From a virus (lineage: Duplodnaviria > Heunggongvirae > Uroviricota > Caudoviricetes): a stretch of DNA of 64,000 nucleotides. The stretch lies in IMG/VR virus record IMGVR_UViG_2648501802_000002. One strand, written 5' to 3'. A program made the translations under genes and the position numbers. Of this stretch, positions 14,312 to 62,599 are shown in pieces (within the stretch, counting starts at the first letter, position 1; every line of letters begins with the position of its first letter). Below the pieces are notes generated by a model that did no database searches, was not told where the DNA came from, and saw only the letters and a list, made by a program, of their open reading frames with translations.

Positions 14312-14312
14312 A

Positions 14313-16171: not shown

Positions 16172-16253
16172 TGATTTTTAAAACAGAGAAAGTGAAAATA
16201 AAAACTTGCCGCAAGGCGCGGCATGTATCCAATCAATCACAGGAGCTGAAAAT

Positions 16254-19536: not shown

Positions 19537-19658
19537 AGCGCATCCTTTGTGCCGTCTGGCAAGGGCCGGAAGGGGGTTAAGGGTGACTTCCAGCGTGTAA
19601 AAAAATAGCCTATATACTGACCGGGTGTTAAGGTGGCCCGGTCGGTAGCAATGGTCAA

Positions 19659-31415: not shown

Positions 31416-31619
31416 TTATAATTGAGCCGTGGCGTTAGTCAACTACGAAGACGTGGCCATTACCTACTTAACCAGTTCCGCCAGGGCAGCAGAGTAGGTT
31501 TCATCTCGGATGTACCATGCCTGCATGTTTTCCAGAGAAGCCCGCGAGGTTCCCGGACAGGACTCTGCCATTGCGATAGATTAAATGCAATAACCTAAAA
31601 GCGATAACGTGGTGGAAAA

Positions 31620-32259
31620 ATGTTCATCAGAGCTTATTTAAGGGCATCAACGGAAGATCAGTTTGCCGATCGGGCAAAAGAGATGCTGGGGCAGTTTGTT
31701 CAGGAGCGGGGACATAAAATAGCCAGTTACTACCGGGAGAACATAAGCGGTACAAAACTCGACCGCCGGAACTGGGACGCTTACTGATGGACAGCCACCG
31801 CAATGATATTTTACTGGTCGAGCAAATTGACCGCCTGACCCGTCTGAGTAACAGTGACTGGATTACGCTGAAAAAGCAGATAGAACAACACGAACTGCGG
31901 ATTGTCGCCTGGATGTATCCACCTCATGGCAGGCGCTGTCAGATAAAGACCCTTCGCAGGCTGACCCAATCACCCGCGCCGTGATAACCGCCATCAATAA
32001 CATGCTTATCGACCTGATGGCCGCGATGTCGCATAAGGACTGGCTGAGCCGTCGCCAACGGCAACAACAGGGAATTGAACGGGCTCATACGCTGGGTAAA
32101 TACCGGGGATAACAGGCCGATCAGGAACGGCATCAGAAAGTCCTGTACTACTGGCAGGTCAAGAAACTAAGTATCCATGAAACGGCAGATGCGACAGGGT
32201 ACAGTCCTTCACAGATATGCCGCATTCAAGCCCTTTATAGAGAGCCTGAATCGGAATAA
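31620..32259 (+). pseudogene. serine recombinase (resolvase/invertase family), decayed
   Basis: Starts MFIRAYLRASTEDQ (catalytic Ser motif); two single-base losses in C-runs (about 31762 and 31908) and an in-frame TAA before the C-terminal HTH. Confidence 0.6.
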
Positions 32260-32365
32260 AAAGTAGCCCAGGCGTTAATGGATTACCTTTCCAGGCTAAG
32301 CTCATTGCTCCTGTCAGATACGCAGCCCTGCCTGTAATAATACAGACTGGGCAATGTGTTGCCAC

Positions 32366-32767
32366 TCAGGCTGACAACTGTCGGAGGATATCCGCTGTAT
32401 TATAATGAGCCCGTTTTTCTATATATTTCCCGTCTTTCAGAGTGATCATAAACATCAGAGAAAAGCGCACTTTCCTGCCGCTGGCAGGATGCCCAAGGAA
32501 TTCACGGGTCTGCACGCCTTCAAAGATAAGATAGCAGGCGACTTTATCGTCTCTGGCAAAGATTTCGTGGATACGCATTGTAAATCCCGGAAAAGCATCC
32601 ATATGGCCTTTTTCCTGTACGATAAACTGCTCACTGTTCAGCGGTGTATCCACCTGAGAATAGAATTTAAAATCCGGATGGCAGAGGTTTTTCACCTCAT
32701 CATATTTATTTTCTTCAATCAGACGATAAAACTTTTTAACCGTTTTGATATTTTCTTAAACAGACAT
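32366..32767 (-). pseudogene. SnoaL-like / NTF2-fold protein with premature stop at codon 4
   Basis: GAGGTG RBS then ATG TCT GTT TAA (stop at 32756-32758), frame stays open into the annotated ORF from GTG at 32695. Confidence 0.5.
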
Positions 32768-32775
32768 ATTGCACC

Positions 32776-33765
32776 TCATTTTTCAGTTTCTTTACCTGCC
32801 GGAATATTGCCTTCCGGCGTTCCGTTAAATGTTTTTCGCCATTCACTGGGACTGACTCCCATCCGCTGCCGGAATATCTGCCGGAAAGTAATGGTGGACT
32901 GAAAGCCTGCCAGTTCGGCAACCCGCTCCACTGCAATATCTGTACTTTCCAGCAGTTCCTGACTCCGCCGGAGACGCTCTGTGGTGATCCACTCCCAGAC
33001 CGTCATTCCTGTGGCCGAATGAAAATGGCGTGTAAGCGTTCTTCGGCTCATGGAGGCTAAATGGGCCAGAGTGTCAATATCATGTGGTAATCCCAGATTT
33101 GCGGACAGGTATTCCAGCAGCTGGTTTATGCGGTTATCGGACGTACTTTTGGGAATAAGCAGTTGCCGGTACTGTGCCTGTCCGCCTTCCCGGTAAGGAG
33201 GAGCAACCATCCGGCGGGCTATTTGATTAGCCGTATATCTGCCCAGGCGTTGCCGGATCACATGGAGACAACAGTCCAGTGCTGCGGCTGTACCGGCTGA
33301 GGTGATAATCCGCTCGTCCTCAACATAAAGCACGTTCACGTCCAGATGAACCGCCGGGAAAAGCATCTGGAAATCCCGTTCAGCCTCCCAGTGCGTGGCC
33401 GCCCGTTTACCATCCAGCAGACCGGTGTAAGCCAGAACAAAACTCCCCAGGCACAGGCCCACCACCTGAGCTCCATTTTTCCAGGCTGCAACCAGGGCAC
33501 TGAGCAGAGTTTCAGAAGGCCTTTCATGGATGTGTTTCCAGAAAGGAATAATAACGATATCGGCCTCTGCCAGTGCATCAAGCCCGTATTCTGCCCTCAT
33601 CGCCGTACCTTCAGCAGACCAGATAAGCCCGGGCTCTTCCGCACATACCCGGCGGCTGAAGAGGGCCTTCCCTTCCAGTATCTCCCCGAACAGGATTAAT
33701 GGAACGGAGACATGAAATGTACTGAACCCTTCGGTGATCACTATAGCGACAGTGATGGTGGACAT
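32776..33765 (-). CDS. GlxA-like transcriptional regulator (DJ-1/PfpI domain + AraC HTH)
   Basis: 329-aa ORF; N-terminal DJ-1-like region and C-terminal AraC-type HTH. Confidence 0.6.
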   Translation of the reverse strand: MSTITVAIVITEGFSTFHVSVPLILFGEILEGKALFSRRVCAEEPGLIWSAEGTAMRAEYGLDALAEADIVIIPFWKHIHERPSETLLSALVAAWKNGAQVVGLCLGSFVLAYTGLLDGKRAATHWEAERDFQMLFPAVHLDVNVLYVEDERIITSAGTAAALDCCLHVIRQRLGRYTANQIARRMVAPPYREGGQAQYRQLLIPKSTSDNRINQLLEYLSANLGLPHDIDTLAHLASMSRRTLTRHFHSATGMTVWEWITTERLRRSQELLESTDIAVERVAELAGFQSTITFRQIFRQRMGVSPSEWRKTFNGTPEGNIPAGKETEK

Positions 33766-33780
33766 GCCATGGCCTCCGGG

Positions 33781-34557
33781 TTAAATCGTAACTGATTCAC
33801 CATCAGCAGGAGCGACAACTGACGCCTGGATCTGGTTATCGCGGGCATATTCCAGCAGTTCCTGACGGGTCAGCAGACAGTGGTTTACGGCCTCCATGTG
33901 CGTTGCCACAATCAGTGCCTCTGGTACGATACGATGGGCTTTCAGGACATCTTCCCTGCCGAAAATAATGGGGCCGAATCCGAGAACATGCGCCCAGCCC
34001 GTATTCATAATAACGACGCCAGGATTGAACCGACGTAAATTATCCTCTACAGCCTTGATCCAGATGGTATCCCCAACCAGATAGAGCGTTTTTTCGGACG
34101 GATGCTGGAAGACCACCCCACAGGCATCCCCAAGAATTGCTGCGAGTTGCGGGTTAGCATAGGCTTCGTCCGAACCATGCTGACAAACGGTTTTAATAAG
34201 TGAAATTTCGCCAAATGTGCTTTTGTCAGACAGAATAACAAGGTTGCTGAAGCCCTGGGAACGCAGGATCTTTTCATCATGTTCATTCTGAACATAAATC
34301 AGTTTATCTTTCGGGATGTGCGCAACAGCCGCTTCATCCCAGTGGTCAGGGTGTGTGTGGGTGACAATAATGGCATCCACATCCAGCAGTACATCAAGGT
34401 CAAAAGGCAGCTCAGTCATCGGGATGCGGATATCTGACCGGGCCGTTCCTTCGAATCCCGGATAGGCTTCTTTTTTCGCAAGCATCGGATCGACAAGAAA
34501 TTTTTTACCAGCGTAAGAAATGAGTTGTGTGGCGTTACGTACCTGGATGATCTTCAT
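33781..34557 (-). CDS. MBL-fold metallo-hydrolase
   Basis: 258-aa ORF with THTHPDHWD (HxHxDH metal-binding motif). Confidence 0.6.
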   Translation of the reverse strand: MKIIQVRNATQLISYAGKKFLVDPMLAKKEAYPGFEGTARSDIRIPMTELPFDLDVLLDVDAIIVTHTHPDHWDEAAVAHIPKDKLIYVQNEHDEKILRSQGFSNLVILSDKSTFGEISLIKTVCQHGSDEAYANPQLAAILGDACGVVFQHPSEKTLYLVGDTIWIKAVEDNLRRFNPGVVIMNTGWAHVLGFGPIIFGREDVLKAHRIVPEALIVATHMEAVNHCLLTRQELLEYARDNQIQASVVAPADGESVTI

Positions 34558-34772
34558 TTTAGCAAGTCCTGTATTGGTTAATAACCATCAGAGCCATATC
34601 ATGATGGCCTAATGTGATAATTATGATTAAATCAGGCCTGCCTGCCACTGAAATAATGCCATATTTGGATGATATCAGGCCATTCTTCTGGCTCTCAGGT
34701 TTCAGGAATATGTCTGCTGAAAGCGGGTACAGATCTGACGCATTGAAGGGAAGTATCGTCCTTTAAGGCTTA

Positions 34773-35162
34773 TTGATGTCAGCCAGTACAAAAAATCATC
34801 TTAACGTACAATATCTTCCGTTTCCCAAACGGAGCCCACCAACGACGGAGGAACGGCGCATCGCCAATGCTCTTGGCGCTCTCCCCTGCATTGCCTGCTA
34901 TATGCCTGGAGTAATATCTAATGAGGTGTCTCTGAACCATATCGCCGGTCGTACCGCGCCGGGTTGTCACAAAAAGCAATTGCCACTTTGTAGATGGCAC
35001 CACCAGCATGCAGCACCGGCTGAAGTAAGAGAAAAATACCCCTGGCTGGTCCCTGTTCATGCCGATGGTGTGGTTGGAGGCAAGAAAGAATTCACCTTGC
35101 TGAACAAGTCAGAGATGGAGTTGCTGGCTGACGCCTATGAAATGGCAAACGTCATGCACTAA
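34773..35162 (+). CDS. HNH-motif protein (Ref-like position)
   Basis: 129-aa ORF with CIAC...NHIAG...CRWHH Cys/His pattern; precedes a Mat-position gene. Confidence 0.35.
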   Translation: MMSASTKNHLNVQYLPFPKRSPPTTEERRIANALGALPCIACYMPGVISNEVSLNHIAGRTAPGCHKKQLPLCRWHHQHAAPAEVREKYPWLVPVHADGVVGGKKEFTLLNKSEMELLADAYEMANVMH

Positions 35163-35240: not shown

Positions 35241-35996
35241 ATGGATCCCTTTTCAAATATTCCATGGACGGCACAGTCTGAGTACCGGGCGCTACCTTCT
35301 GTTGTATTGCTAAGCCGCCGCTGGTGGCTTTTCTTTTTTATAGGGGGCGATATGGATAAGAAAATATGCGTTGTTTCGATGAGCGTCGGTAAACCGGCGT
35401 CAATGACTGCTGCATGGATCAACAACGAGCTGATAATGGCTGAGCGGACCAGCTACCCTGAACGCCGCCGCGATATGGAACTCCAGCTGCTGCGCGAATT
35501 GCGAGAAAAAGAGGAAAAGGGTTTTATCGTGCTGGTGGAAGAGGAAAACAGCTTTATTACCGGTCGAGTTGGCCAGCGTGTAAGGTTGCGCGATCCCTTC
35601 ATGAACGGCAGGCCGGTACTAATTGAAGCAATGCAGATTTACAAGGAGCTGGAACGCCAGAAAGCGATCAAGTTACCGCGCAAGGAATCCGGCAAATACA
35701 TCCTCCACCAAAGCATCTTCGATTCCGAACACGATAAAAAAGGCGATGAGTTTTTCAACATCAACTGGAGCGAAATAACGACAGAGCATGTTCTGACGTT
35801 GTTATGCTGCTTCGCAACAGAATACAACAACGTGGTAAGCGCAGACTACATCAGGACAATGACAGACACCGTTACTAAACAAGACAACGAATATTCACCA
35901 TATGAGCCATTTGTAAATATGATAAAAGCATTTTATCGGATGGAGCTCGCTAAAGTTCCTCAAGGTAAATTAACAGGTAAGGATAACATCTTTTAA
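35241..35996 (+). CDS. hypothetical protein (Mat-like position)
   Basis: 251-aa ORF, probable start at internal MDKKICVV. Confidence 0.3.
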   Translation: MDPFSNIPWTAQSEYRALPSVVLLSRRWWLFFFIGGDMDKKICVVSMSVGKPASMTAAWINNELIMAERTSYPERRRDMELQLLRELREKEEKGFIVLVEEENSFITGRVGQRVRLRDPFMNGRPVLIEAMQIYKELERQKAIKLPRKESGKYILHQSIFDSEHDKKGDEFFNINWSEITTEHVLTLLCCFATEYNNVVSADYIRTMTDTVTKQDNEYSPYEPFVNMIKAFYRMELAKVPQGKLTGKDNIF

Positions 35997-36049
35997 GCAC
36001 AGTAATGAGGTGCTTAGATGTTAATATCAATATCCTAACTCTCTGCATC

Positions 36050-36739
36050 TCATAAATCTGATAGCCACTTACTATCTATGGACTCAATCTCCGTCAGCGG
36101 AATTGATGGGAAAAAATATCCCTGAGCGCCCCATAGCCCTATTCCTTTTGATAACTTATGACAATCAATGTTTTCGACGCCTTCAGCGATGATATTCGGA
36201 CATAACTTTTTTAAATTGCTAATAATGACATCAAAATGAGGCTTAATCATATGCTCTTGAAAAAATGACTTATCAAGTTTTATTGCATGGTATTTATTTT
36301 TAATTAATGCTTTCATGGTGGCGTTACCACTTCCAAAATCATCAAGCCAAACATAGTCTGTCAAAGTCAGGAGAAAGGGTATAACGTAATCCTCATCGCT
36401 TAAATCAGGGTAGTTTTCTGATATCTCAAGAACTATAAATTTATTGTTTTTAATTAACTCTTGAGTTTGTTTATTACTGTATATATATATACATGTATCA
36501 TAATCTACATTAATAGAACATAGTATATTATGGCGTTCAAAAAAACACTTGTATTTCATTATTGTGTTAAGTTGTGATTTAAGTAAATTAATCTTCATCT
36601 TATTGGTAAACATACCCAATACTCTTTGAGTAGGAAGAGCGACACCATCTTTGGAGCGAAATCTGCTTAACACTTCTACTGCAATCAACTTGTTCGTGCT
36701 CGTAGAAATGATTGGTTCTGCAATGTAGATAACTTCCAT
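36050..36739 (-). CDS. EAL-domain protein (c-di-GMP phosphodiesterase-like)
   Basis: 229-aa ORF with EVLSRF, DDFGSG, KLDKSF and AQGYFF motifs; AT-rich. Confidence 0.6.
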   Translation of the reverse strand: MEVIYIAEPIISTSTNKLIAVEVLSRFRSKDGVALPTQRVLGMFTNKMKINLLKSQLNTIMKYKCFFERHNILCSINVDYDTCIYIYSNKQTQELIKNNKFIVLEISENYPDLSDEDYVIPFLLTLTDYVWLDDFGSGNATMKALIKNKYHAIKLDKSFFQEHMIKPHFDVIISNLKKLCPNIIAEGVENIDCHKLSKGIGLWGAQGYFFPSIPLTEIESIDSKWLSDL

Positions 36740-36975
36740 ATCCCCACCCTCAAGTTTTAAATTGCTTGATTTTGCTCAGATAACGAGCCCCCTATATTTA
36801 CAAGAGTTACACTCTACTTTTGTAGATTAAATGTCAATTTATTTGTTTGTGATAATATTGAAAAATATCAATTAAAACAATCAAAAAATGTGACATAAAT
36901 CAATAATTTTATTTTTACACAACTTCTTGATTTCTGAGCCTAGCTATCTCTATTCTTATTCAAAGCCTCTTTAGA

Positions 36976-37710
36976 ATGGTGGTGGCCATGTCAGCAGTTT
37001 GTTACTTCATACTCATAAAGAAACCTATAAGCTTTCAATTTCTTAAGGATTTCTTAATATTAAATTATGGTGATGTGTTGTTGCTTAAGCATTCTGAGCA
37101 TGAATGCTTAAAAATCTATTCAGACAAATATATAGAATTCGAACTCAATGATAATACCGTAAGAAACTATTTATCATGCAACAACAACCATGGAAACCAA
37201 TCGCTGGATAAGTGTCCGCATTTGCTAAAAAAGTCTTTTGCCTATCCTGATTTATTAATCAGGATGATCGATAATATAAGCGATCAAAATCATATCCATT
37301 CTGATTTTAGGGAGGCAGTAACTTTTTCATTACTCTCAATTTTTAATGATGTTGATAACTTTAGAGCATTTCTTACGTCTGGTATGCCCACTTTCTCAGG
37401 GAAAGTGCGCAGCATATTTCTTTCAGATGTATCTAAACACTGGAAACTAAGAGACCTAACCGATTATCTCTACATGAGTGAAAGCTTAATAAAGAAAAAA
37501 CTATTATTGGAAAACACCTCCTTCAGTAAGTTATTACTTGATACACGGATGGCTTTTGCTATTAAATTACTAAAGCAAAATCATCCAGTCAAACAAGTAT
37601 CAGAAAGCTGTGGCTTTAGTAGTACATCGTACTTTGTGTGCCTGTTCAGGCAATATTATAATTGCACGCCACGTGAATATGCAAAACATCAATTATTATC
37701 TGGAAAATAA
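36976..37710 (+). CDS. AraC-family transcriptional regulator
   Basis: 244-aa ORF with C-terminal AraC HTH; AT-rich, divergent from the EAL gene. Confidence 0.6.
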   Translation: MVVAMSAVCYFILIKKPISFQFLKDFLILNYGDVLLLKHSEHECLKIYSDKYIEFELNDNTVRNYLSCNNNHGNQSLDKCPHLLKKSFAYPDLLIRMIDNISDQNHIHSDFREAVTFSLLSIFNDVDNFRAFLTSGMPTFSGKVRSIFLSDVSKHWKLRDLTDYLYMSESLIKKKLLLENTSFSKLLLDTRMAFAIKLLKQNHPVKQVSESCGFSSTSYFVCLFRQYYNCTPREYAKHQLLSGK

Positions 37711-37748
37711 GATGCATTTATCTCCCAGATAATATTGTAATATTAAAC

Positions 37749-37997
37749 TCAGTCAGCATTTAGTAGCAGAGCATTATCTATGATGATCTGCTCCCATTCT
37801 TCGAATGCCCGGTCACGGACGCCCTGGGGAACACTGTTTGTTTTGAAATCAACGACTGTCCGCCATTTCCCGTCCGGACGGTACATGCGCAGAGCTTTAC
37901 TTCCCCCTTCCCTACGCACCTCAACGTTATGCTTGTCAGCAAACTCTTGTAATGCTCGTAGCGTCCCATGCTTTACTGTGTAGTATCGCTTTTTCAA
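37749..37997 (-). CDS. small protein, last gene of the DarB-like operon (Lxc-like position)
   Basis: 82-aa ORF, 4-nt overlap with the upstream gene. Confidence 0.3.
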   Translation of the reverse strand: MKKRYYTVKHGTLRALQEFADKHNVEVRREGGSKALRMYRPDGKWRTVVDFKTNSVPQGVRDRAFEEWEQIIIDNALLLNAD

Positions 37998-38434
37998 GTT
38001 TTCTCTCCAGCCTGTGCCAAGGCTTCAACTTCCAAATCGTAAGACTCAAACTCATAGTCCTGGTCGTCAACTTCTTCAGGCACTGGCAGTAAATGCCAGG
38101 CTGAGTATATCTGACCATTATCAAAACGCTCCTGGCTGTAGAGCGTCGCAGCTATGAGCGTCAGCGCCGGGCGGTCATAACGGTAAATTTTGCGAACGTC
38201 ACGGTCAACGAGACGACCGAAATTACCATAACCGCGCTCCAGTAATAATTTTTTAATTTCCGGCCAGTATGGGCCATAGCTGCGGTACAGGCGGGGATTT
38301 TTCAGTAATCGCCCGCGTAGCCCTGACAGGAAGAAATCAACGTATTCGTCTTCTGTCTTTCCTAACAACGCTGTACGGAGTACCGCCTCAAGATATGTTT
38401 TATTCGGTTTTATTGTATCAGATAGTGTGGCCAT
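37994..38434 (-). CDS. hypothetical protein downstream of DarB-like gene (Ulx-like position)
   Basis: 146-aa ORF. Confidence 0.3.
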   Translation of the reverse strand: MATLSDTIKPNKTYLEAVLRTALLGKTEDEYVDFFLSGLRGRLLKNPRLYRSYGPYWPEIKKLLLERGYGNFGRLVDRDVRKIYRYDRPALTLIAATLYSQERFDNGQIYSAWHLLPVPEEVDDQDYEFESYDLEVEALAQAGEKT

Positions 38435-38467
38435 ATTATGCGACGCCCGGCGAACCGGGCGCTCCTG

Positions 38468-41400
38468 TTATGCGTATTGTTGGATGACGGCCAGAACGTC
38501 CGCCACGTTGTGTTTTGTCTCGATAATCCACCAGTTACCCGGGAAATCGCTGTTCTTCGCCTTCGCTGGCAGCCAGCGAGCGCCGAATTTCGCCTTGATT
38601 GCGTCTTTCGCACGGAAAAGAACGCCTTTCATGCCTGAGGCTTCCTGAAGCCCAAATACCTCGCCAGCGGCGAATTTTGGTGCGTACATCATCTTCAGGT
38701 CGGCGGTGGATACGCGATAATTCAGACCTAGAGACTGAGCTATGCTGGTGGCATCACCCTGTATTGATGATAACTCTTCTTGTTTCTCGTTTCTGGCGGC
38801 AATCTCTTCCTCCGTGATGTTGCCAAGGGCCAGGTTTATCCGATCAGCGTCGGCCTGTTTCTCTTCATCGGTGCGCCCGGCAAGAACCGTGTTAATTCTC
38901 TGCAATATCTCCACATGATTCTTGCGCATGCTGAGCAATTCCGGCGTAACCTCGTTAAGATCCACCAGCCCAAGGATGGCAAGGTCGGAAAACATTGATA
39001 CCAGGTTGTAGGTCATGCGATAGCTGAGTTGACCATAGGCTGATGGCAACTTCACCGCATCCATTTGATAGGCATCCATAAATTTAGAGCCGTCGTTTAC
39101 GACATCCGCTATTGCAGGTGTGATTTTCCCTGTGGTGGCGGCCTCCCTGATTGCTGTTACCCACGATTGAGTCAGCGCGGCGACTGCATGATTCAGATTG
39201 GCTTCCCGTTCTGCTGCGATGCGCGCGCTTGCTGCGTCCATTGCCTGCTTGATCTCGGCTTTATTGCTGTAAATGCCAATGGTGCCAAACTGTGCTGTGG
39301 TGATCTCATAATCTGACGCCCGGAACTCATTGGTACCGAAAATGGCATTGGTGACTTCAAGTTCAGAATCCCCGTTACGAGTAGCCCCCTGGCTTGTTTT
39401 TTCCGGCATTCTGGCGATCGCATCCGCTATTTTCTCCTGAATTGCTTCAGGGGATAGCGTATCTCCGTATGACGCGATTACATCGCCATAATTGGAGCCA
39501 AACAATTCAACCAGGAATGTTTCTGCCGAACGGATCTGGCGGTTATTCCCTTCCGACATCATACCAAGCACCCATTTTGCAATTGACGACTTCAGCGCGA
39601 CGTCACGGCGATCCGGGTAAACCGCATGCTTCAGTGGGTCCGTATAGGTACCAACAAAATCAATGCTATAGCCTGACTCTGTAGTCTGAACGCCGTATGA
39701 GTCAGTGATTTTGATCATGCCGCGCTGCTGGAAACGGTAGAAATCGTCACAGGAAATGATGTCGTTAATCCCGGCGATGGAGACGCCGCCACTGATTTTC
39801 TGCATAACAGCATCTTCATCGGGAGTTACATCAACCTGTTTATCCAGCGTCTTCACATCCCAGTTACCCGATTTGGTACCTTTGAAGGTAAAGATAATCT
39901 CCACGTCTGCGCGCAGGCTGTCGAAGTCCAGCGACTTAATGCGAACGATATCACCGGCACAATCGTAGTATTGGCCTACACGCCATGAGCGATCGCCGAT
40001 AATAAGGAACTCACTCGCATGGTTAACCAGGTCAGGATCAACATCCAGAATGCCTTTATTTATTGCATCCTCCACCAGCGGGCGCAGGCGTTTGATATCC
40101 GTCGCGGCCTTCTGAGTACGGTTCAATAATTTCTCATAGCGGGAGATGGCTTGAGAGATATTAGCCTTGCGCTGAATGGCGCTTTTCAACGACGCGCGAT
40201 ACTGTGCTAACAACGTACGGTCTGTGTGATGGACGCTACCCCAGCGGGCTTTCCAGTCTGCGTTATCAGCTGCTTTGGCCATTACCGCCTGTTTGAATTT
40301 GGCGACGTCGGCGGTGGTCTTTTCAAGTTCCGCTTTGCTTCGCTCTAATTCAGCGGTAAGCACCTCCACATCCTCACCAGCTGCGTGCTGCGCCTTGATG
40401 TAGTTCTGAAGGTCGATAGTAGCCTGTTCTTTCTGGCGAGCGCGTTGCGCGGCTTTCGCCTTATCCATTTGAACCTGCATCATTGCCAGACGTTCGCCAT
40501 CATCCTTAGCGGTATACATCTGCATTTCGATCATATCGTTGGCGTCGGCGTTCTCCATTTCTGACTTATCTGAACGGAGGATATCGGAGATCCAACCTGC
40601 TTTACGCTTCAGCGTCTTCAGTCGGTATTCATCGAAAGAACCCTTGCCGCAGTAGTAGTGAACGCGAACGCTTGCACGGTTGGAACCAACTCGGGCACCG
40701 CGACCGTTACGCTGTGCGATACTGGCTGGTGTCCATGGCAACGTCAGATGATGGATGTCAGTCGTTCCTCGATGCAGGTTGATACCCACCTCTGCCTTTT
40801 TGTTGCAGATGATGATCGGAGTCCGGCCCTCCTGGAAGTCGGCTGCAATCTTTTCCAGACCGCCCAACGACATTTCATTTTGCTGCGCGATATAGGCGTC
40901 ATACAGAGCTATTTGCTCGTTGTATTTCGCTATCTGTGCATCTGTTGGTTCATCCGGTAACTCTTTCGGCGGTTTAACCGCTTTCAGTTTCTTACCGGTT
41001 TTACCTGCCTCGGCAACCGTCTGAGCATTCAGGATCCCCACCTTTGAAGGTTCAAGGTTAAGAGCATTGCAGATAATGCGCTTGAGCTTCTGGTGTTGCG
41101 TTTTTTTCATCGGTGAAGATGATTTGCTTACCTTCTGGGAAAAACTCCTTCAGCGTGGCAATCAGCTTCGCGTATTTGGGCGTAACGGGGTGAGTTACGG
41201 TCTGTTCGTCAATGCCAAACTTGGCCAGGCGCTTATTCACTTCCTGCTCAAATGCTTCCGGTACCTGCAACTGAATAAACTCGCCCTTATCTATCAGGGA
41301 GTATTGCGATTGCTGCGTGATTGAATCATCACTGTCGTCGTCTTCGCTGGTGGCTTGTTTGGGCAAACTGTCCGCCAGCTGCTGCACCGCATCGGCGTAC

Positions 41401-43287
41401 TCCGGCAGGAAACGATAGGTGATCCGGCGATAGTACAGGTCCATGTCAGTACATACGCGGTCCATATCCCTGATTATTGAGAAGATCGGACGGGCTTTCT
41501 CGTGCTCAATCACGCCGTCTTCATTGACCGAGGTCATTACGCCATTGTTGGCTTTGGCCGCCGCTTCCGCCTGCTGACGCAATTCTTCATACGCCGCCAG
41601 TTGTTCTTCAGTAAGTGGTGCATCCTGCTGGTGTTCGTCCAGCTCCGGGATCTCCACGGTATCCTTAACGTCTTCCGCCGTTTTAAGCGTTACCCAGCGA
41701 TGGAATATACCGCGCAGCGCATCAACCCGACAATTTCGCTATAGGACCGCGACCAGGATTACCAAAGCGGTCAATCTCTGCCTGCAAACGGGATACCAGA
41801 GAAAGGCGCTGCTGTTCGATTTGTTCAGCACTATGCCCGGCGGCCTTCATATCCTGATATTCAATTAACATCCGGCCAATCATCGCCCCGCGATACAAGC
41901 GTTCACGGTATTTTTCAGGCTGGCTGTTAATCCAGTCCACCAGCTGCACCATATCGTCGCTGATTGATGTGGTGTACTTATCGCGGACATTTGCCATCTG
42001 GGTAAATGTCATGCCGAGACGGCCTTCTGTTGTAGTCAGGTTACGCTGAAGAGCCTCCCAGCTATCCGCGCCATAACTGGCAGCATCGATCTTAAGTTCC
42101 TTCCCGGCATCAGCTTCAATCCAGCGACCACCAGCATATTTTTGCCATACGCCATTAATCAGGCGCATTTCCCCTTCACCAACAACGTCTGCGGTCGGTG
42201 ACGGTTCAGCCATATCGAGCAAAGACCAGTCGATACGGCTTTCGAAACGATGAATCAGCTTCGCTTTAAGAGCCTGGTTATCAATCTGACCGTCGGCACG
42301 AACCTCAATACGCCCCTGGAAGCCCTTTTCCTGGGTGCCATGAACAAACCGGCGGCCATCCTTTTCAAACCACTTGCCAGAAATAAACGTTGGCCAAAGC
42401 ACATTTGCCGATTCAAGAGTGCTTTCATCCACCAGGGGGATTTTCTCAGCCATCTCTGCCGGATGTTTGCGCATCAGCACCACATCAACGACTGTACTGG
42501 TCCCGTTTGCGTCAAAAGTACCGGTAGGCAAGCGGTGAGCGCCAAGAAATTCAGCTTTACGGGATAAGCGCAGGCGTAACCGCTTCATGTTTGAACCTGA
42601 AACAATGGACGGCGGCACAATCACGCACATGAATCCGCCTGGCTTTATCTTGTCCAGCATGCGGAGCATGAAGTAAGAACCCATGTCCGTTTCTTCTGCG
42701 TAAGGCTTATCGATGTTGCGTGTGTTATCACGACCGCCGAACGGAACGTTACCCACAACATGGTCGAATGAATCGTTAGGCGTGCTTATAGCCAGCTGTT
42801 CGAACGGGGAAATCTGTACGCTGTCTTCCGGGTGTAACAACTGGTTTATACGACCGGAAACACTGCTGATCTCAGTCGCGGTCATCACCGTACCAACCGG
42901 TTTTGTCTCATTAAAAACGCCGGTTCCCGCCGATGGTTCCAGAGTGTTACCTACGTCCGCGCCGTAGAGCTTCATGATCTCCCAGACACCTTCAGCGATC
43001 GGCTTTGGTGTGTAATATTCGGAGACGGACCCGCCAATGCCGCCTTCACCGGTGTACCCAGCCAGGATCTGGCGCTGTTCATCTGTCAGTGTCGCGCCGT
43101 CCACCAGCGAATTAAGCAAATCTATCGCCTTCTGATTCGCCTCCCGGCGCAGTCGGTCATAGCTTTTGCCTTCCACCTTTTCCACGCCGTATTTAATCGG
43201 CGCTCGGTGAGATGTTATTGCCCTAATGTATTTCAATATTTCGCTGACACTTGAACAGCAAAACACCCCCATAAATAGCTTGTTCAT
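38468..43287 (-). pseudogene. DarB-like N6-adenine methyltransferase + helicase-C fusion gene, in three ORFs
   Basis: ORF 41722..43287 has methyltransferase motifs (EPSAGTGVF, GNVPFG); ORFs 41058..41657 and 38468..41110 carry helicase C-domain motifs (KQIIFTDE; AQRNGRGAR); junctions at an A7 tract (41101-41107) and a 1-nt shift near 41722-41738. Confidence 0.55.
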
Positions 43288-43353
43288 TGGTAATCCTTAA
43301 CAAGTGACTAGTGTTAAATTCCGTTCAAACACGATGCGAATTATTCTAATTAA

Positions 43354-45084
<1,731 letters not shown>

Positions 45085-46359
45085 ACGGCAAACATTCCCA
45101 ATTCACAGAGTCCGACCTAAACCACATGAAGCGGCTTAGGAATTACAGACTCTCCAAGGGCTAACACTGCCAGCCCGGCAGCTTTTATATTACGGGCCGC
45201 GTTAATATCACGATCATGCTCTGCGCCACATTCCGGGCAGTGCCATTTACGAATATTAAGAGGCATTTTTTGCATGGTGAAGCCGCAACTGCTGCAACGT
45301 TTGGAAGAAGGGAAATACTGGTCGATAGCGACAATGCTACGTCCACCCCATTCTCCTTTGTACTGGAGTTGGCGTACAAGTTCGCTCCAGCCTGCGTCAG
45401 CTATTGCTTTAGACAGCTTCGGGTTACGGATCATGTTTTTCACTTTAAGGGATTCGACGCAAACAACTTGGTTTTCGTTAATCAGTTTGCGGGACAACTT
45501 ATGCAGGTTATCCATCCGACAATCGACTATTCTCGCGTGGAGGCGGGCAACCTTTAAACGTGCTTTGGCGCGGTTCTTTGAGCCTTTTTGTTTCTTGCTC
45601 AATCTGCGCTGTAACACTGCTAATCGCTTCGCGTATTTAGCGTTGTGTCGAGGATTGCCAGTTTTAAAACCGGTATCGGTGACGAACAAATCTTTTAAAC
45701 CAATATCAATGCCGACCGTGGAAACGGTGATCGGCAGTGATACAGGCTCAAACTCGCAGAGACAGGATACAAAATATCGTCCGGCAGCATCCCTGGTGAT
45801 AGTGACAGTGGATGGAGCAGACGGCAACGGACGGCTCCAGCGAACATCTAACGGCTCTTTGCTCTTTGCCATGTACAGCTTGCCGTCACGGTATTTAAAT
45901 GCGCTGGCAGTTAGTTCTGCGGCCTGTTTATGCCGCTTGCTCTTAAAAACTGGGTATGCAGCACGCCCGGCGAAAAAGTTAGCAAAAGCCGTTTGTTGGT
46001 GGCGCAGAGACTGCTGGAGGGGGACGCAGGAAACGTCATTCAGCCAAGCGAATTCTGGTTCTTTTTTCAGTGCCGTTAATTTGGCGCTGGCTTGTGCATA
46101 GCCGACCCTCTCATGGCGTGCGTAGTACGCATCGGTGCGCCAGCGAAGGAGGCTGTTATAGACAAAACGCACACACCCAAAAGTCCGGGCTAATAGCTCG
46201 GTTTGTTCGGGAGTTGGATAGAATCGATATTTATAGGCACGCTTCATGTTCTATATAATACATTGAAACTAATGAGTATATAAATGAATACACGGACGAA
46301 AATGTTATCAAAGCCAATATACCAACAGACATTAGGTAAGGTAGCTGGAGGGCAATATA
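45085..46359 (-). mobile_element. tnpB-only IS200/IS605-type element between portal and protease genes (ends not defined)
   Basis: TnpB ORF fills the intergenic space; no tnpA ORF adjacent. Confidence 0.5.
45117..46247 (-). CDS. tnpB: IS200/IS605-family TnpB (RNA-guided endonuclease)
   Basis: 376-aa ORF starting MKRAYKYRFYPTPEQ, with C-terminal zinc finger CSSCG...CPECG. Confidence 0.85.
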   Translation of the reverse strand: MKRAYKYRFYPTPEQTELLARTFGCVRFVYNSLLRWRTDAYYARHERVGYAQASAKLTALKKEPEFAWLNDVSCVPLQQSLRHQQTAFANFFAGRAAYPVFKSKRHKQAAELTASAFKYRDGKLYMAKSKEPLDVRWSRPLPSAPSTVTITRDAAGRYFVSCLCEFEPVSLPITVSTVGIDIGLKDLFVTDTGFKTGNPRHNAKYAKRLAVLQRRLSKKQKGSKNRAKARLKVARLHARIVDCRMDNLHKLSRKLINENQVVCVESLKVKNMIRNPKLSKAIADAGWSELVRQLQYKGEWGGRSIVAIDQYFPSSKRCSSCGFTMQKMPLNIRKWHCPECGAEHDRDINAARNIKAAGLAVLALGESVIPKPLHVV

Positions 46360-48880: not shown

Positions 48881-49077
48881 ATGTGTAAAAAACGACTGAA
48901 AGAAAAGCGGTGGTCCAAACGCCAACAAAAGCACGAACTCGCTAAAAAACGCCAAAGTTGGCAATGGCACGCGCTTTTCACGAAAAGAACACCCCGAGAT
49001 ATTGCTTTCGCTGGTGGGAAAACATTCCTGACCCACCTGAAGGCGCAATACATCAGGTTTTAAGCAGAGGAAAGACT

Positions 49078-49755
49078 ATGAATAACATGACAACGAAAGA
49101 GCTTTTGACGGCACTTCCAAAATACAAAAGCCATAAAACAGTTCGTGCCTCAAAAATCAAAGATATCGAAATTATCGCCCTAATGGATGTGGTCCTTCTT
49201 TGCAACATCGAAGTCGTTGAGCCAGAAGGGGTAAAAGTCCATGTTGATAAAATGTTTTTGCAAAAACACCGACCAGAAATTGGCGGATATCTGGTCGCTT
49301 ACGAGGACGGATCTCTGTCCTATTCACCAGAAAAAACATTTGAAGAAGGCTTTAGTCGGACTAACGACTTCTTCGAAAATGGGGTATCGCTCAGCATTGA
49401 AGGTCACAACGGGGTGACATTCATTACAGCCAAGGACGTAACTATTTCTGCTGGCGGTATCGCTACTCTACAAGAAGAAATCGACCTTGAAGCAGCCGAC
49501 TTTTCTGACGCGCTGATGTGGCTGAAGGATGGCAAGAAAGTTGCTCGACGCGGGTGGAACGGCGAAAACCAATTCTGCTGGCTGGTTCCTGAAGGACAGT
49601 ACCCGGCACGAATGGAAGCCATTAAGGGATATTTCCCCGGCGACCTCGTTCCGTATGGTGCTTATTTCGCCTTAAAAAATGCACAAGGTGTAGTTGTTCC
49701 GTGGGTTCCTTCTGTAGGCGACTTACTGGCATGTGACTGGTTTGTAGTGGAGTGA
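49078..49755 (+). CDS. hypothetical protein (DUF2829-like C-terminus)
   Basis: ATG at 49078 has AGAGGA RBS (track ORF starts 48958); MWLKDGKKVARRGWNG motif. Confidence 0.35.
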   Translation: MNNMTTKELLTALPKYKSHKTVRASKIKDIEIIALMDVVLLCNIEVVEPEGVKVHVDKMFLQKHRPEIGGYLVAYEDGSLSYSPEKTFEEGFSRTNDFFENGVSLSIEGHNGVTFITAKDVTISAGGIATLQEEIDLEAADFSDALMWLKDGKKVARRGWNGENQFCWLVPEGQYPARMEAIKGYFPGDLVPYGAYFALKNAQGVVVPWVPSVGDLLACDWFVVE

Positions 49756-49761
49756 TTTAAC

Positions 49762-50550
49762 GTGGAAAATACTAAAGCAATTCAATACCGCCTGCGTAAT
49801 GGCCAGAGTGTCGAAGTGACCATCAATAATGATGGTGTACCTGGCGAAAAGGTTTCTATCTCTGATCTGGCTATCGAAAAAACCATCATGTGCCACCTTG
49901 GCTTTACTGAAGAAGTGAGCAAAAAGCATGGTGTAGCTATCTGGCGAACAATGGATACTGGCATGCGCAGATTCATTACCGCTCGTACCCCAGGTATGAC
50001 CATGATGGACCTCATGCAGATTGCGCCGCTGTTTGAGTGTGAACCTTTGGATGTATTCAGCAATCCAGCTATCTGCCAGCAGTTATATGGTGAGATGAAA
50101 CTCGCGGTTACCCCCATTGTGCTGCATGAAGGATCGCTTGCTGGCGTATGGAAAGTAGAGCGAATTTCAAGCTATATGCCCTTCCACATCCATGTCAACG
50201 GCGTAATCGCAGGTGAAAATCAACCTGTTTCAGTTACAAAGTCAGACCTCAAGCGCGCAATTCTTGAAGCAAGTTGTCGAGTTATCGGCCTGGGCAAACA
50301 GTCTTATGTTTTCTTCCCGGCTGGCCCTGAAGGCCCGGCAGAAATTCTGATTATGGATGCCGATCTGCTCTGGCAAATACAGTTTCTGATTGGCAAAAGC
50401 ATCATCCGCGCTGAAGAACTCGATCAGTACATTACCTGCACGATGACGGATGAAGTCAAAAGTGTGGCTATAGCCAATGCCCGGAACCTATGTCGTGCTG
50501 CATTAACAGAACTGCAAGAAAACACCACGGAAGAAGTGGAAAGCGATTAA
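49762..50550 (+). CDS. hypothetical protein
   Basis: 262-aa ORF. Confidence 0.3.
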   Translation: MENTKAIQYRLRNGQSVEVTINNDGVPGEKVSISDLAIEKTIMCHLGFTEEVSKKHGVAIWRTMDTGMRRFITARTPGMTMMDLMQIAPLFECEPLDVFSNPAICQQLYGEMKLAVTPIVLHEGSLAGVWKVERISSYMPFHIHVNGVIAGENQPVSVTKSDLKRAILEASCRVIGLGKQSYVFFPAGPEGPAEILIMDADLLWQIQFLIGKSIIRAEELDQYITCTMTDEVKSVAIANARNLCRAALTELQENTTEEVESD

Positions 50551-50580: not shown

Positions 50581-50887
50581 AATATACGATCTGGTCTACA
50601 TGATCACCAAAATCATCGTCGTCGTCCTCATCGCCACCATCTACTGCTGGCCAATCAACAAACCAGCCAGCGTAAAGATGCAGCGTTCGGAGAACATCAC
50701 TTGCGGGAGCATCAAGGGTGTTAACGAATCCCATATAGCTATTGGGATTTGCTCCAGCTATGGCTTCAGCGATCATGTCCTCGGTAATGTCACCGGAGAT
50801 AATGCTTAAACGCCCGGAAACTTCTTCATTATCATCAAATTCGATAATGGCATCTCCGCCTAATGGCGCTGCGATTTTAATCTGCAT
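50579..50887 (-). CDS. hypothetical acidic protein
   Basis: 102-aa ORF, last gene of the dar operon direction. Confidence 0.3.
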   Translation of the reverse strand: MQIKIAAPLGGDAIIEFDDNEEVSGRLSIISGDITEDMIAEAIAGANPNSYMGFVNTLDAPASDVLRTLHLYAGWFVDWPAVDGGDEDDDDDFGDHVDQIVY

Positions 50888-53864: not shown

Positions 53865-53876
53865 CCCTGTTACGCC

Positions 53877-54242
53877 TTATGCTGCCTCTTTAATGTTGGC
53901 GGCTATCCATGCCGCCGTGTGCTGTTTAACCTGGTCCAGATCGATGTATGTGCCAACATATTGACTCAAGTCCTGCAACGTACCGATAAATGCATCGGTG
54001 CTCTGATCGACGAATTTATCAGCCAGGAAATCAGCAACCAGTTTTGGCACACCATCATGTACCGAAGGTTGTTTTTCCTCGCCACTACCGCCGCCGGACG
54101 CGCCGTACCCCATCTGTTGCATGATCTGGTCAATTTCATCGCTGATATCCAGCAACTCCATGCCACTCGCGGTAGCCGCTTTGGACATCAGAGCATCCAA
54201 CTTATCGCTGAGATCCATTAACTCAATAGCTGATAGTGTCAT
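53877..54242 (-). CDS. DdrA-like protein
   Basis: 121-aa ORF between the DarA and DdrB positions. Confidence 0.45.
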   Translation of the reverse strand: MTLSAIELMDLSDKLDALMSKAATASGMELLDISDEIDQIMQQMGYGASGGGSGEEKQPSVHDGVPKLVADFLADKFVDQSTDAFIGTLQDLSQYVGTYIDLDQVKQHTAAWIAANIKEAA

Positions 54243-56158: not shown

Positions 56159-56159
56159 G

Positions 56160-56771
56160 TTAATTTCCTGCTTTCAGTTGCTTAAGACGGCGTTTGAGTT
56201 CGCCATTCCGTGCCTTTTCGTTATTGAGTCGGCCCGTCTCCTTATCCAACTTCGCCCGCAAATCTGTGATCTGCTGTTGATTGAAAGACACCGAATTCTG
56301 CGCGGACTTATAAGCGGCAACCACCTGAGCATTCCGCTGTTTTGCTTCTTGCAGGCGCTGAAAGTTGGATTTAACTGCCGGTTTCTTGTCTACCGGATTG
56401 GCAACACGCTTCGCTTTGGCGATCAGTGATTTCTGGAATTTCGCAGAGTTTTTGCGGGCCGCTTGCCCCATGACGGTACCAAGCGTCTTGATATCTGGCG
56501 ACTGTGCGTTAGGAATAGATTTTCCATTCAGTTTCACAGCCGATATATCACCAGTATCGTTTACCTGTATGGCAAGAATTTGTCCGTCGTTAAGAACCAG
56601 TTTTGCGGTTTTAACTTTAACGCCATCTTTCGTTGTTGCGCGGTTGCTGGAGTCAACCTCAATTACCGTAACACCGGTTTTATTGATCGCCGCGATAAGG
56701 GATTTCAGCCCCTTTTCATTAACCTGGTCAAAATCGACCGTTGCATACTTATTTTTCGTCATCTGACACAT
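56160..56771 (-). CDS. Hdf-like protein
   Basis: 203-aa ORF immediately upstream of the DarA-like gene. Confidence 0.45.
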   Translation of the reverse strand: MCQMTKNKYATVDFDQVNEKGLKSLIAAINKTGVTVIEVDSSNRATTKDGVKVKTAKLVLNDGQILAIQVNDTGDISAVKLNGKSIPNAQSPDIKTLGTVMGQAARKNSAKFQKSLIAKAKRVANPVDKKPAVKSNFQRLQEAKQRNAQVVAAYKSAQNSVSFNQQQITDLRAKLDKETGRLNNEKARNGELKRRLKQLKAGN

Positions 56772-57518: not shown

Positions 57519-57586
57519 AAGTTCCCTCCTACGTTGTCAGGAGGTAATGGTATGCAAAGTAACTTCTCAACCGGTCATGTTACTTG

Positions 57587-60725: not shown

Positions 60726-62153
60726 CTACAACATCAAGAAGAATGTTGTTTTGCAGCTCTTCATTATCGTGGTGCCGAGTTCTCTTAAACCAAGGTATTG
60801 GATAACAGCAAGGACGCTTGTTTTGGACAGAATATCGCGACCGACTGACGTTAAGTCAGTCTGAGAAACAGTGTCTGTACCGGTAAAGTACGGCAGTTTA
60901 TTTGCGCCTGTAGCAAGACCAGCAAGCGCGGTTAAAGTTGCATCCAGAGGCTGTTTGCCTGCCAGCGCATTTGTCATTGTTGTCGCAAAGTTCGGGTCAT
61001 TACCAAGTGCTGCGGCAAGCTCATTCAGGGTATCAAGAGCTTCTGGTGATGAACCAACCAATGCGGATATGGCAGCTCTTACATAAGCAGTCGTAGCAAT
61101 CTGCGTATTATTTGTGCCCTGCGCAGCCGTAGGCGCAGTAGGGACTCCCGTTAATGCAGGGCTTGCCAAAGGCGCTTTGAGGGCTAGGGCATTGTTGATA
61201 GTTGTGCTGAAATTCGGGTCGTTATTGATCGCAGCAGCTATTTCTTTAAGCGTATCCAGTGTGCCAGGTGCACCGTTGATAAGTGCCGTTATAGCTGACT
61301 TAACAAAGGCTGTATTTGCGATCTGCGTGCTATTTGTACCTTGCGCTGCCGTCGGCGCGGTTGGCGTTCCTGTCAGACTCGGGCTTTCTATTGGCGCTTT
61401 GGTATCAGCAAGACCTTTTACAGACTTAACGGCTTTAGGGGTAGCCGCCATTGTTTCGCTGTCGCTGTTAGTTTCGCTACTGAGCTGAACTAATCCCTTT
61501 TGCGTTGTGCTTGCATCCTGTGCCGTATACTTGCTTTTCGCCAGATCGTAGGCTTTTTTAGCTGCCAGCGAACTTGCAGCAACATCACTTCTGCTACTGG
61601 TTACAGAGTCTGAAATATCAATGCCGATCGTGCGGTTAATACGCTCGGATGTATCAATCATCTCCTGGGTAATGGCTGATACGCCAGCAGGGATATTCAC
61701 CGTACAAACAAGCAGCTCTCCATCTCCTAACTGATATGAATCGGTATAGGTTCTGGCAACAAATTCAGCCGCATGAATATGTGACGCGGTATTAACCTGA
61801 TAGGTATCCTCTCCAAGGAGGTATCTTCCCTTCAGCACAATTGCATATTTCTTGCCTTCACTAAGTGCAAGAGAAATATCCTTACGGTGCCGAATAGTTA
61901 CCTGGTAGAATTCACCAATATCCACTGACGCAGCGCCAGCAGTTTTATCACCATCCACTGAGGTGATTAACAGGTTCATACCACCGCCAGGCTTCGGCAG
62001 GAAACCGGCATAAAACCCAGGATCAACAATTCCCCTGAATTTTCGGTTTAGCGCGGCTGACAGATATGGTTCGTGGTATTGCACATCAGCCACCAGAGCC
62101 AGTGACTCGGGCGATGGGTAAGTAACTGATGTAACAACTGTAACGTCATTCAT
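60726..62153 (-). CDS. tail fibre protein, constant N-terminal part
   Basis: Start at MNDVTVV (62153, AAGGA RBS); Ala/Thr-rich repeats; ends 16 codons after the cix-like site with ...VIQYLGLRELG. Confidence 0.55.
   Translation of the reverse strand: MNDVTVVTSVTYPSPESLALVADVQYHEPYLSAALNRKFRGIVDPGFYAGFLPKPGGGMNLLITSVDGDKTAGAASVDIGEFYQVTIRHRKDISLALSEGKKYAIVLKGRYLLGEDTYQVNTASHIHAAEFVARTYTDSYQLGDGELLVCTVNIPAGVSAITQEMIDTSERINRTIGIDISDSVTSSRSDVAASSLAAKKAYDLAKSKYTAQDASTTQKGLVQLSSETNSDSETMAATPKAVKSVKGLADTKAPIESPSLTGTPTAPTAAQGTNSTQIANTAFVKSAITALINGAPGTLDTLKEIAAAINNDPNFSTTINNALALKAPLASPALTGVPTAPTAAQGTNNTQIATTAYVRAAISALVGSSPEALDTLNELAAALGNDPNFATTMTNALAGKQPLDATLTALAGLATGANKLPYFTGTDTVSQTDLTSVGRDILSKTSVLAVIQYLGLRELGTTIMKSCKTTFFLML
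60780..60805 (-). other. cix/hix/gix-like recombination site
   Basis: TTCTCTTAAACCAAGGTATTGGATAA: 12-bp inverted half-sites around an AA core, close to hixL TTCTTGAAAACCAAGGTTTTTGATAA. Confidence 0.6.
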
Positions 62154-62164
62154 CAAGCATATCC

Positions 62165-62599
62165 TTATGCTATAGTCGTGTTGATGGCCATAACTGCGGT
62201 ATATGTTTTTCCCACATACAGCGAGTCTTCCTGAACACAAATAATTGCGATGGGCTTATTCTCGTTATCCAGAACAACCAGAGTGTTGAATGGATAGTTT
62301 TTCCCTTCCTGCAACTGGCTTTGATCAAGGTCCATTCGGACAGTAATTATCCCGCCAGAGTAGGTTGGGACGAGGTTGATGGTGCAAAATTGACTGGTCA
62401 GTTCTGCCAACTCGAAAGTCTTTGGCAGTTCTCCAATGTCATAAGTACCATCTTCATTTTTGGTAACCAGCGAACTGGTGCCGAAAACGGCCTTGCTGAT
62501 TAAAAATCGAGAGCCTTTGTTAATGGACGATTCAGCGCGTCGCTGATAGTAATAATCCAACAACTGACTCTTATAGAGATTTGTTGAGACGTCAGACAT
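62165..62599 (-). CDS. tail fibre/baseplate-associated protein (R position)
   Basis: 144-aa ORF immediately upstream of the tail fibre gene. Confidence 0.4.
   Translation of the reverse strand: MSDVSTNLYKSQLLDYYYQRRAESSINKGSRFLISKAVFGTSSLVTKNEDGTYDIGELPKTFELAELTSQFCTINLVPTYSGGIITVRMDLDQSQLQEGKNYPFNTLVVLDNENKPIAIICVQEDSLYVGKTYTAVMAINTTIA

Follow-up and report, generated by a model that had tools for sequence, protein, structure and literature searches.

The three minus-strand open reading frames (ORFs) at positions 38468-43287 of the 64,000-nt stretch of DNA analysed here (the window) very probably represent a single darB pseudogene on a P1-like phage-plasmid, as judged from sequence comparison, and would thus be neither a regulated nor a split gene. 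The window is a P1-like phage-plasmid, and the segment itself corresponds to P1 darB, with ~98% nucleotide identity over 1,690 + 3,426 nt. In P1, DarB is a virion-packaged methyltransferase/helicase of ~250 kDa that serves as a "polyvalent" anti-restriction protein against the type I restriction-modification systems EcoB and EcoK. What the comparison shows directly is homology to P1 darB, where the deletion begins and ends, which domain is gone, how the frames relate and how rare the lesions are among relatives; the presence of the deletion in the real DNA, an error at the A7 tract and a lost phenotype are inferred. P1 darB is already well known, and the copy in the window is an ordinary pseudogene.

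A preliminary description of this DNA had recognized a DarB-like methyltransferase/helicase in three co-linear minus-strand ORFs. Comparison with P1 agrees on both counts: the gene order ulx-darB-prt is preserved alongside the 98% nucleotide identity, with ulx downstream and prt divergent upstream, and the ORFs lie in three different frames. Megablast aligned window 37753-41725 with P1 9754-13725, and window 41726-45069 with P1 15675-19018. The match of the window to P1 darB falls in two pieces, which in each of the 18 full-length phage records together span 7,049 nt. The features of the locus are as follows.

37994..38434, minus strand: ulx, 146 aa, intact, within the block 37753-41725.
41110..38468, minus strand: ORF3, 880 aa, DarB residues ~1379-2255, spanning the Helicase_C lobe and the protein's C-terminal region.
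41657..41058, minus strand: ORF2, 199 aa, a mechanical call with a GTG start.
41101..41107, minus strand: A7 tract (T7 on the plus strand), longer by one base than in P1 (A6).
41103..41724, minus strand: DarB remnant, residues ~1172-1378, out of frame with ORF1.
41725..41726, minus strand: deletion junction, blunt, joining P1 15675 to 13725.
43287..41722, minus strand: ORF1, 521 aa, DarB residues 1-521.
43363..45084, plus strand: prt (portal), intact.

Both neighbors of darB are undamaged: the P1 stop-to-stop ORF covering ulx is recovered in the window as a single HSP free of stops, and that of prt is likewise covered by one HSP, within the block 41726-45069 that is gap-free relative to P1. 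The single continuous darB ORF of ~2,255 codons, by comparison, is not kept.

The junction sequences were set against those of P1 and of 42-62 relatives. Missing from the window are 1,949 nt, equivalent to P1 13726..15674, darB nucleotides 1563-3511 and residues 522-1170. Because 1,949 is not divisible by three, the frame is shifted and a TGA is placed at the junction. The preliminary description had overlooked the deletion altogether and had instead interpreted the first break as a 1-nt shift within 41722-41738. Its remark that no helicase N-domain could be seen was nonetheless correct, as Pfam detected the SNF2/ResIII ATPase lobe (Walker A/B) in none of the three ORFs. In P1 DarB, Pfam assigns residues 849-911 to SNF2-rel_dom and 833-904 to ResIII, and both matches belong to the deleted interval; the Walker A/B region is thus missing because the deletion removed this lobe.

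How the deletion arose was considered from the junction itself. No microhomology or repeat explaining it was found there; the best candidate, a 9/10 motif lying 3 nt out of register, would not give the junction observed, and repeat-mediated deletion or assembly collapse was therefore rejected. The junction was absent from 20 phage records (INPHARED). It was absent, too, from 556 PLSDB and 576 RefSeq Escherichia coli records, in which coverage of the junction query always stayed below 80%, and it had no exact match in GTDB representative genomes, IMG/VR or JGI metagenomes. A circulating allele is accordingly unsupported, with no second case in the phage, plasmid, E. coli and contig collections searched.

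P1 DarB 1-521 matches window 43287..41725 at 98.3% identity (tblastn), and ORF1, in which Pfam identified N6_Mtase at 90-291 (E = 1.8e-9) together with Eco57I, bears out the earlier placement of the methyltransferase part in 41722..43287. ORF1 retains the darB start codon, the promoter region and the 30-residue segment for capsid targeting, as well as the N6_Mtase match in its entirety, carries the private N-terminal substitutions S5F and R10C relative to P1 DarB, and ends in ...PIAKLSG*, its TGA being made by the deletion junction. DarB 1171-1378 matches window 41726..41103 at 98.1%, and DarB 1377-2255 matches window 41107..38471 at 98.2% (both tblastn). Of the two parts previously said to bear a helicase C domain, ORF3 indeed contains Helicase_C (residues 80-142), whereas ORF2 had no match in the Pfam search. 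In the frame of ORF2 a stop comes immediately before, and the only start is the internal GTG at 41657, 4 nt upstream of which sits AAGGA. The stop codon of ORF3 is that of P1 darB.

The second break coincides, as had been described, with the T7/A7 run at 41101-41107, which falls exactly at the overlap of ORF2 and ORF3 and breaks the frame between them. This position (window 41101) is the sole gap in a 3,973-nt alignment block with P1. The tract is A6, and the frame continuous, in 66 of 67 IMG/VR relatives; the remaining relative, which also has A7, is a contig that differs from P1 by eight indels within 5 kb, of which six add or remove one base (±1) in a homopolymer run. With A6, as in P1, a continuous 1,062-aa ORF is obtained, reading ...FTDEKTQHQKLKR. 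The preliminary description had proposed that one added A would fuse the two frames; by computation, however, A8 still terminates, only A9 yields the ...DEKKTQHQ fusion, and removal of one A restores the frame, so that the frame requires a change of -1 or +2 instead of +1. Genuine length variation among relatives does occur at two T-runs of the window that are non-coding (T6/T7/T8 and T5/T6).

Four further private frameshifts were found in conserved genes of the window. Gene 6 (baseplate hub) carries G5 to G6 at 6382-6387 (G5 in 91/91 relatives), pmgQ carries G4 to G5 at 13748-13752 (G4 in 9/9), pmgS carries T3 to T4 at 15562-15565 (T3 in 12/12), and a tail-fibre gene carries A6 to A7 at 60504-60510 (six bases in 2/2). 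All five, the darB tract included, are insertions, a bias of weak significance at n = 5 (two-sided p = 0.06). The four additional +1 frameshifts point to consensus over-calling or to a decaying prophage and not to programmed slippage, and they render plausible, for the A7 tract, the assembly homopolymer errors that had been offered as one explanation. The extra A probably, though far from certainly, reflects over-calling of the homopolymer in the consensus; a credible but less likely origin would be a real second mutation by slippage, in a gene that was dead already.

Closely tied to this question is a wider reading, possible but on balance doubtful, in which all five frameshifts are genuine and the element is a decaying P1-like plasmid prophage whose darB, gene 6, pmgQ, pmgS and tail-fibre gene were hit by replication slippage; if so, the prophage would be defective and the A7 a genuine mutation, not an artefact. 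Homopolymer slippage is the commonest natural frameshift mechanism, databases hold defective P1-like plasmids and darB pseudogenes, and darB has an undoubted second lesion in the 1,949-nt deletion. Its private substitutions, moreover, number 6 non-synonymous to 1 synonymous, as against 6:34 for shared polymorphisms (Fisher p = 5e-4), an excess consistent with relaxed constraint on a gene that may be genuinely dead. These seven sites do not, however, set darB significantly apart from other genes, whose private changes run 8:9 (p = 0.17), so that as a test of real against artefactual lesions the ratio is suggestive for darB, with counts too small to separate it from the rest. Against decay of the whole element, gene 6 (no private substitutions), pmgQ and pmgS (one synonymous each) give no sign of relaxed constraint, and nonsense substitutions are absent from every real P1 backbone gene in the window. 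Short runs such as T3 to T4 and G4 to G5 are also poor slippage substrates, every one of the five events is an insertion, and the sites are invariant in 9-91 relatives. The window as a whole thus carries a quality flag, with two of its five private +1 homopolymer frameshifts in virion-essential genes, and other "split gene" findings from the same sequence should for now be viewed with suspicion.

Could the entire split, including the 1,949-nt gap, be an artefact of assembly, the real molecule possessing an intact 6.8-kb darB? The signs of consensus error in the five homopolymer insertions, together with a junction unique among >1,100 relatives, lend this proposal some weight, but it is improbable: the junction is blunt and lacks a repeat able to collapse an assembly, the adjoining blocks are gap-free apart from the A7 position, darB shows the private non-synonymous excess, and a comparable, independent 2-kb darB deletion occurs in NZ_CP013030.1. 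The deletion is thus probably present in real DNA.

Marginally less probable still is the proposal that the pieces are separate genes, with a packaged DarB(1-521) methyltransferase conferring partial anti-restriction and a C-terminal fragment that might re-initiate at GTG 41657. The elements retained by ORF1 would suit such a protein, since they include promoter region, start, targeting segment and methyltransferase match, and the darB locus is mosaic in P1-like plasmids, some of which carry "helicase-related protein" alleles without the P1-type 5' part. To our knowledge, however, activity has never been demonstrated for the isolated DarB methyltransferase domain. The first 30 residues of DarB are sufficient for capsid targeting, and residues 6-10 are implicated in this process (PMC9024508); S5F and R10C fall in or beside the latter. 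Naturally separate genes were rejected, the ORF boundaries being private lesions (a unique deletion junction and a near-unique +1 insertion, when set against intact genes of 98% identity) and not conserved gene boundaries.

Weakest of all is the idea that slippage programmed at the A7, in transcription or translation, or phase variation there, controls production of the helicase C part: the frame does break exactly at a homopolymer, and A-runs can support low-level polymerase slippage, but the tract, being A6 in 66 of 67 relatives, is neither a conserved shift site nor length-polymorphic (which also speaks against a contingency locus), the frame is restored by -1 or +2 bases and not by +1, translation would not reach the tract from upstream (given the out-of-frame deletion, the ORF1 stop at the junction and in-frame stops before ORF2), and the ATPase lobe is missing anyway. 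The earlier suggestion that expression depends on slippage is thus not supported; the upstream deletion also blocks a full-length product.

Under the favored reading of a single darB pseudogene, an illegitimate, blunt deletion would have removed codons 522-1170, taking with them the SNF2/ResIII ATPase lobe and its Walker motifs. The darB promoter and start would then yield at most a 521-residue fragment retaining the capsid-targeting N-terminus and the methyltransferase domain, and the remaining 3.2 kb would be an untranslated remnant, interrupted again by the extra A in the A6 tract. Because the deletion is out of frame and removes the ATPase lobe, even an A6 tract would give no full-length DarB; a full-length, helicase-competent protein would be impossible with either origin of the extra A. 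Without it, the element should no longer be protected in the manner of DarB from type I restriction of the EcoK/EcoB kind.

Among the options raised in the preliminary description, inactivation finds support as regards the entire gene, given that the 1.95-kb out-of-frame deletion took the ATPase lobe. The term is perhaps too strong for the 521-aa fragment, whose methyltransferase activity and packaging could persist. It is very unlikely, yet conceivable, that the deletion is real and has produced a natural minimized DarB of 521 residues, combining targeting signal and methyltransferase and still packaged and injected; this would be a case of methyltransferase separated from helicase function in a wild element. 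For annotation, the locus is best given as one darB pseudogene, neither as three genes nor as a frameshift-regulated gene. If the lesions are real, the window would represent a defective P1-like plasmid prophage no longer shielded by DarB from type I restriction. Experimental work makes use of a viable P1ΔdarB lysogen, indicating that darB is dispensable (PMC9024508).

The closest known system is P1 DarB itself (P1_gp011, YP_006479.1; 2,255 aa), to which all retained segments show ~98% identity at both nucleotide and protein level. Like P1 darB, the window copy lies between ulx and prt, uses the same start and stop codons, and encodes N6_Mtase and Helicase_C; unlike it, the copy lacks residues 522-1170 with the SNF2/ResIII ATPase lobe, is broken twice in frame, and carries private substitutions at two sites of its N-terminal targeting segment. 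Programmed frameshifting or slippage at A-runs (dnaX, the A6G motifs of IS elements) and homopolymer contingency loci share with the window a break at seven A; the window differs from these in that the split is unconserved, the tract length is not polymorphic, the upstream frame is untranslated and the shift required is -1 or +2. A nearer parallel is the darB pseudogene annotated as "frameshifted; incomplete" on plasmid unnamed2 of E. coli 2012C-4227 (NZ_CP013030.1, AKK22_RS33465), which is also the closest relative on the 5' flank (98.6%). There, too, a P1-like plasmid carries a darB disabled by a deletion of ~2 kb, accompanied in that case by small indels. The 2,000-nt deletion in NZ_CP013030.1 lies at P1 10518-12517, in the 3' part of darB; as its end-points differ from those in the window, it represents an independent event.

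Three co-linear open reading frames (ORFs), each in a different frame, make up the darB-like locus at 38468-43287, as the preliminary description had reported:

43287..41722, minus strand, ORF1, 521 aa
41657..41058, minus strand, ORF2, 199 aa, GTG start
41110..38468, minus strand, ORF3, 880 aa

Their proposed identity as a DarB-like methyltransferase/helicase was borne out by a megablast search of 50,697 phage records, in which 38300-43400 gave 18 full-coverage matches (97.7-98.6% identity), among them P1, P7, SJ46, and RCS47. All 18 matches consist of two pieces, spanning 7,049 nt in the subject versus 5,101 nt in the query. In P1 (NC_005856), the counterpart region is ulx-darB-prt, with darB as one uninterrupted gene (6,768 nt, 2,255 codons). 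Since approximately 46 kb of the 64-kb window can be aligned to P1 at 93-98.6%, the window is a mosaic P1-like phage-plasmid; no identical record was found in PLSDB, INPHARED, or RefSeq E. coli.

The break between ORF1 and ORF2 had been read as a 1-nt shift within 41722-41738, but pairwise alignment revealed the junction of a 1,949-nt deletion relative to P1 darB. Window position 41726 aligns with P1 15675, and the adjoining 41725 with P1 13725; P1 13726-15674 (darB nt 1563-3511, residues 522-1170) is absent, and the peptides flanking the junction lie 650 residues apart in DarB. Because 1,949 is not divisible by three, the frame shifts: codon 521 is still Gly (GGT) and is followed by TGA, so ORF1 is exactly DarB 1-521. 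Of the domains that Pfam finds in P1 DarB, N6_Mtase/Eco57I (residues 145-290) and Helicase_C (1455-1517) are kept in the window ORFs, and the SNF2-related/ResIII ATPase lobe (833-911) is gone. The Walker A/B helicase N-domain, correctly noted as missing, lay within the deleted part, which fully explains its absence. The junction is blunt, with no microhomology at the break in P1 or in allele variants of IMG/VR relatives; a nearby 9/10 motif was rejected as the source of the deletion, being offset by 3 nt and failing to produce the observed sequence.

A 551-nt query spanning this junction matched 556 plasmids in PLSDB and 576 E. coli records in RefSeq, every match covering a single flank or falling in two separate places, and none of these records reached the threshold of at least 80% coverage. 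No copy turned up either when GTDB representative genomes, IMG/VR, and JGI metagenomes were scanned for the exact pattern. Judged by these searches, the deletion is private to the window sequence.

The second junction does coincide with a T7 run (sense-strand A7) at 41101-41107, inside the ORF2/ORF3 overlap. Across the 3,973-nt block 37753-41725, the alignment to P1 has a single gap, due to one additional T at window 41101, the sense-strand tract being A6 in P1 versus A7 in the window. By frame arithmetic, A6 gives an uninterrupted 1,062-aa ORF reading ...FTDEKTQHQKLKR, A7 and A8 both terminate, and A9 yields the previously proposed ...DEKKTQHQ fusion; one added A therefore does not join the frames, and the window instead holds one surplus A. 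A degenerate scan of IMG/VR found A6 in 66 of 67 P1-like contigs. The single A7 contig (IMGVR_UViG_2645727715_000008) carries eight indels versus P1 in 5 kb, the same darB A7 included, of which six are ±1 in homopolymer runs; it is thus error-ridden, and exemplifies public contigs that imitate frameshifted genes.

Among all indels listed between the window and P1, four more single-base homopolymer insertions break conserved genes, the others sitting in divergent or non-coding stretches:

6382-6387, minus strand, gene 6, G5 to G6 (G5 in 91/91 IMG/VR relatives)
13748-13752, pmgQ, G4 to G5, gene split (G4 in 9/9 relatives)
15562-15565, pmgS, T3 to T4 (T3 in 12/12 relatives)
60504-60510, minus strand, tail-fiber ORF from ATG 60552, A6 to A7 (six bases in 2/2 relatives)

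Gene 6, the baseplate hub (PMC9024508), is left as 7205..6384 and 6385..6191 on the minus strand, and the final 3 codons of pmgS are swapped for a 33-codon extension overlapping pap. The tail-fiber tract, the second A7 of the window, shifts the frame after 16 codons; with one base fewer, an ORF of 296 aa is regained, and both relatives have an intact ORF (330/340 aa). For 5000-16300, the best matches in PLSDB are 11,298 nt long versus 11,301 nt in the query, and thus lack all three insertions in that region. Two non-coding T-runs differing from P1 are, unlike the coding runs, truly polymorphic among relatives. No real P1 gene of the window carries a nonsense substitution, and large stretches, such as the entire darA operon (50581-57578), are gap-free versus P1.

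Systematic consensus over-calling fits the five frameshifts better than biology, because all are +1 events in homopolymers, two strike genes required for infective virions, and the backbone is otherwise clean. Homopolymer error in the assembly, one of the options offered earlier, is accordingly plausible for the A7 tract; a sequencing-error component in the darB disruption is probable. A prophage that became defective recently, with all five frameshifts genuine, is less likely but plausible, their uniform +1 sign being weakly significant (two-sided sign test, p = 0.06). Slippage-dependent expression, also offered, was rejected along with a programmed site at the A7, the arrangement being unconserved and no translated upstream frame feeding it, as was a contingency locus, the tract length not being polymorphic among relatives. 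Homopolymer frameshifts elsewhere in the window should be treated with caution.

The darB remnant carries seven private substitutions, six of them non-synonymous; S5F and R10C, which alter the N-terminal segment for capsid targeting, are among them. This 6:1 ratio differs from that of shared darB polymorphisms (6 non-synonymous to 34 synonymous; Fisher p = 5e-4) but not significantly from that of private changes in other genes (8:9; p = 0.17); these small numbers are suggestive of relaxed constraint. In the closest 5'-flank relative, NZ_CP013030.1, darB is annotated as "frameshifted; incomplete" and has a different deletion, of 2,000 nt, indicating that darB decay happens independently elsewhere. 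Of the 800 RefSeq E. coli records that match P1 darB at all, 441 contain at least 80% of it, and the experimental use of P1ΔdarB lysogens (PMC9024508) shows the gene to be dispensable for growth. Many P1-like plasmids (RefSeq E. coli H151-H159) match P1 darB only from nt 2800 or 4952 onward, with alleles annotated as "helicase-related protein" or "DEAD/DEAH box helicase"; natural alleles thus seem either to have exchanged the 5' methyltransferase part or to lack it, and the locus is mosaic.

DarB (~250 kDa), targeted to the capsid by its first 30 residues, enters it last among the Dar components and inhibits EcoK and EcoB restriction (PMC9024508). Expression from the intact start would yield DarB(1-521) at most, the sequence downstream of ORF1 being out of frame and devoid of the ATPase lobe; we therefore infer loss of anti-restriction function. 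Low-level re-initiation at GTG 41657, preceded 4 nt upstream by a weak AAGGA, is conceivable, but any product would have neither the targeting signal nor helicase lobe 1. The earlier suggestion of an inactivated gene thus stands as regards the broken gene and the missing lobe, the functional loss being presumed. The remaining Dar genes (hdf, darA, ddrA, ddrB, and ulx) are intact in the window. From its sequence, the locus is an ordinary pseudogene, a disrupted copy of a well-characterized gene, and the practical outcome is its correct annotation.

Several other features of the window also depart from P1. The constant S part of the tail fiber (62240..60726) ends 66 nt beyond the cix crossover, unfused to a variable part, and the invertible segment is merely ~1.7 kb versus 4.2 kb in P1. 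The isaA homolog (49104-49765) has a ~660-nt interruption or extension relative to P1, with adjacent ORFs at 48958..49755 and 49762..50550. A TnpB/OrfB_IS605 (Cas12f-like TNB) gene of 376 aa (45117-46247, minus strand) is inserted between prt and pro, which have no spacer in P1. The window lacks the type III res/mod locus of P1, whose region is occupied by cargo genes at 31463-34831 and 35861-37753, which encode:

DJ-1/PfpI-AraC regulator, 329 aa
metallo-beta-lactamase-fold protein, 258 aa
EAL-domain protein, 229 aa
AraC-type regulator, 244 aa

An intact type I restriction-modification system lies at 16420-22429, between pap and phd/doc:

minus strand, hsdR, 1,038 aa, EcoR124_C family
minus strand, hsdS, 403 aa
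minus strand, hsdM, 520 aa

The window thus carries a type I system and has lost the anti-type-I gene darB, whereas P1 has pmgT-upfO and other genes at the position of that system.
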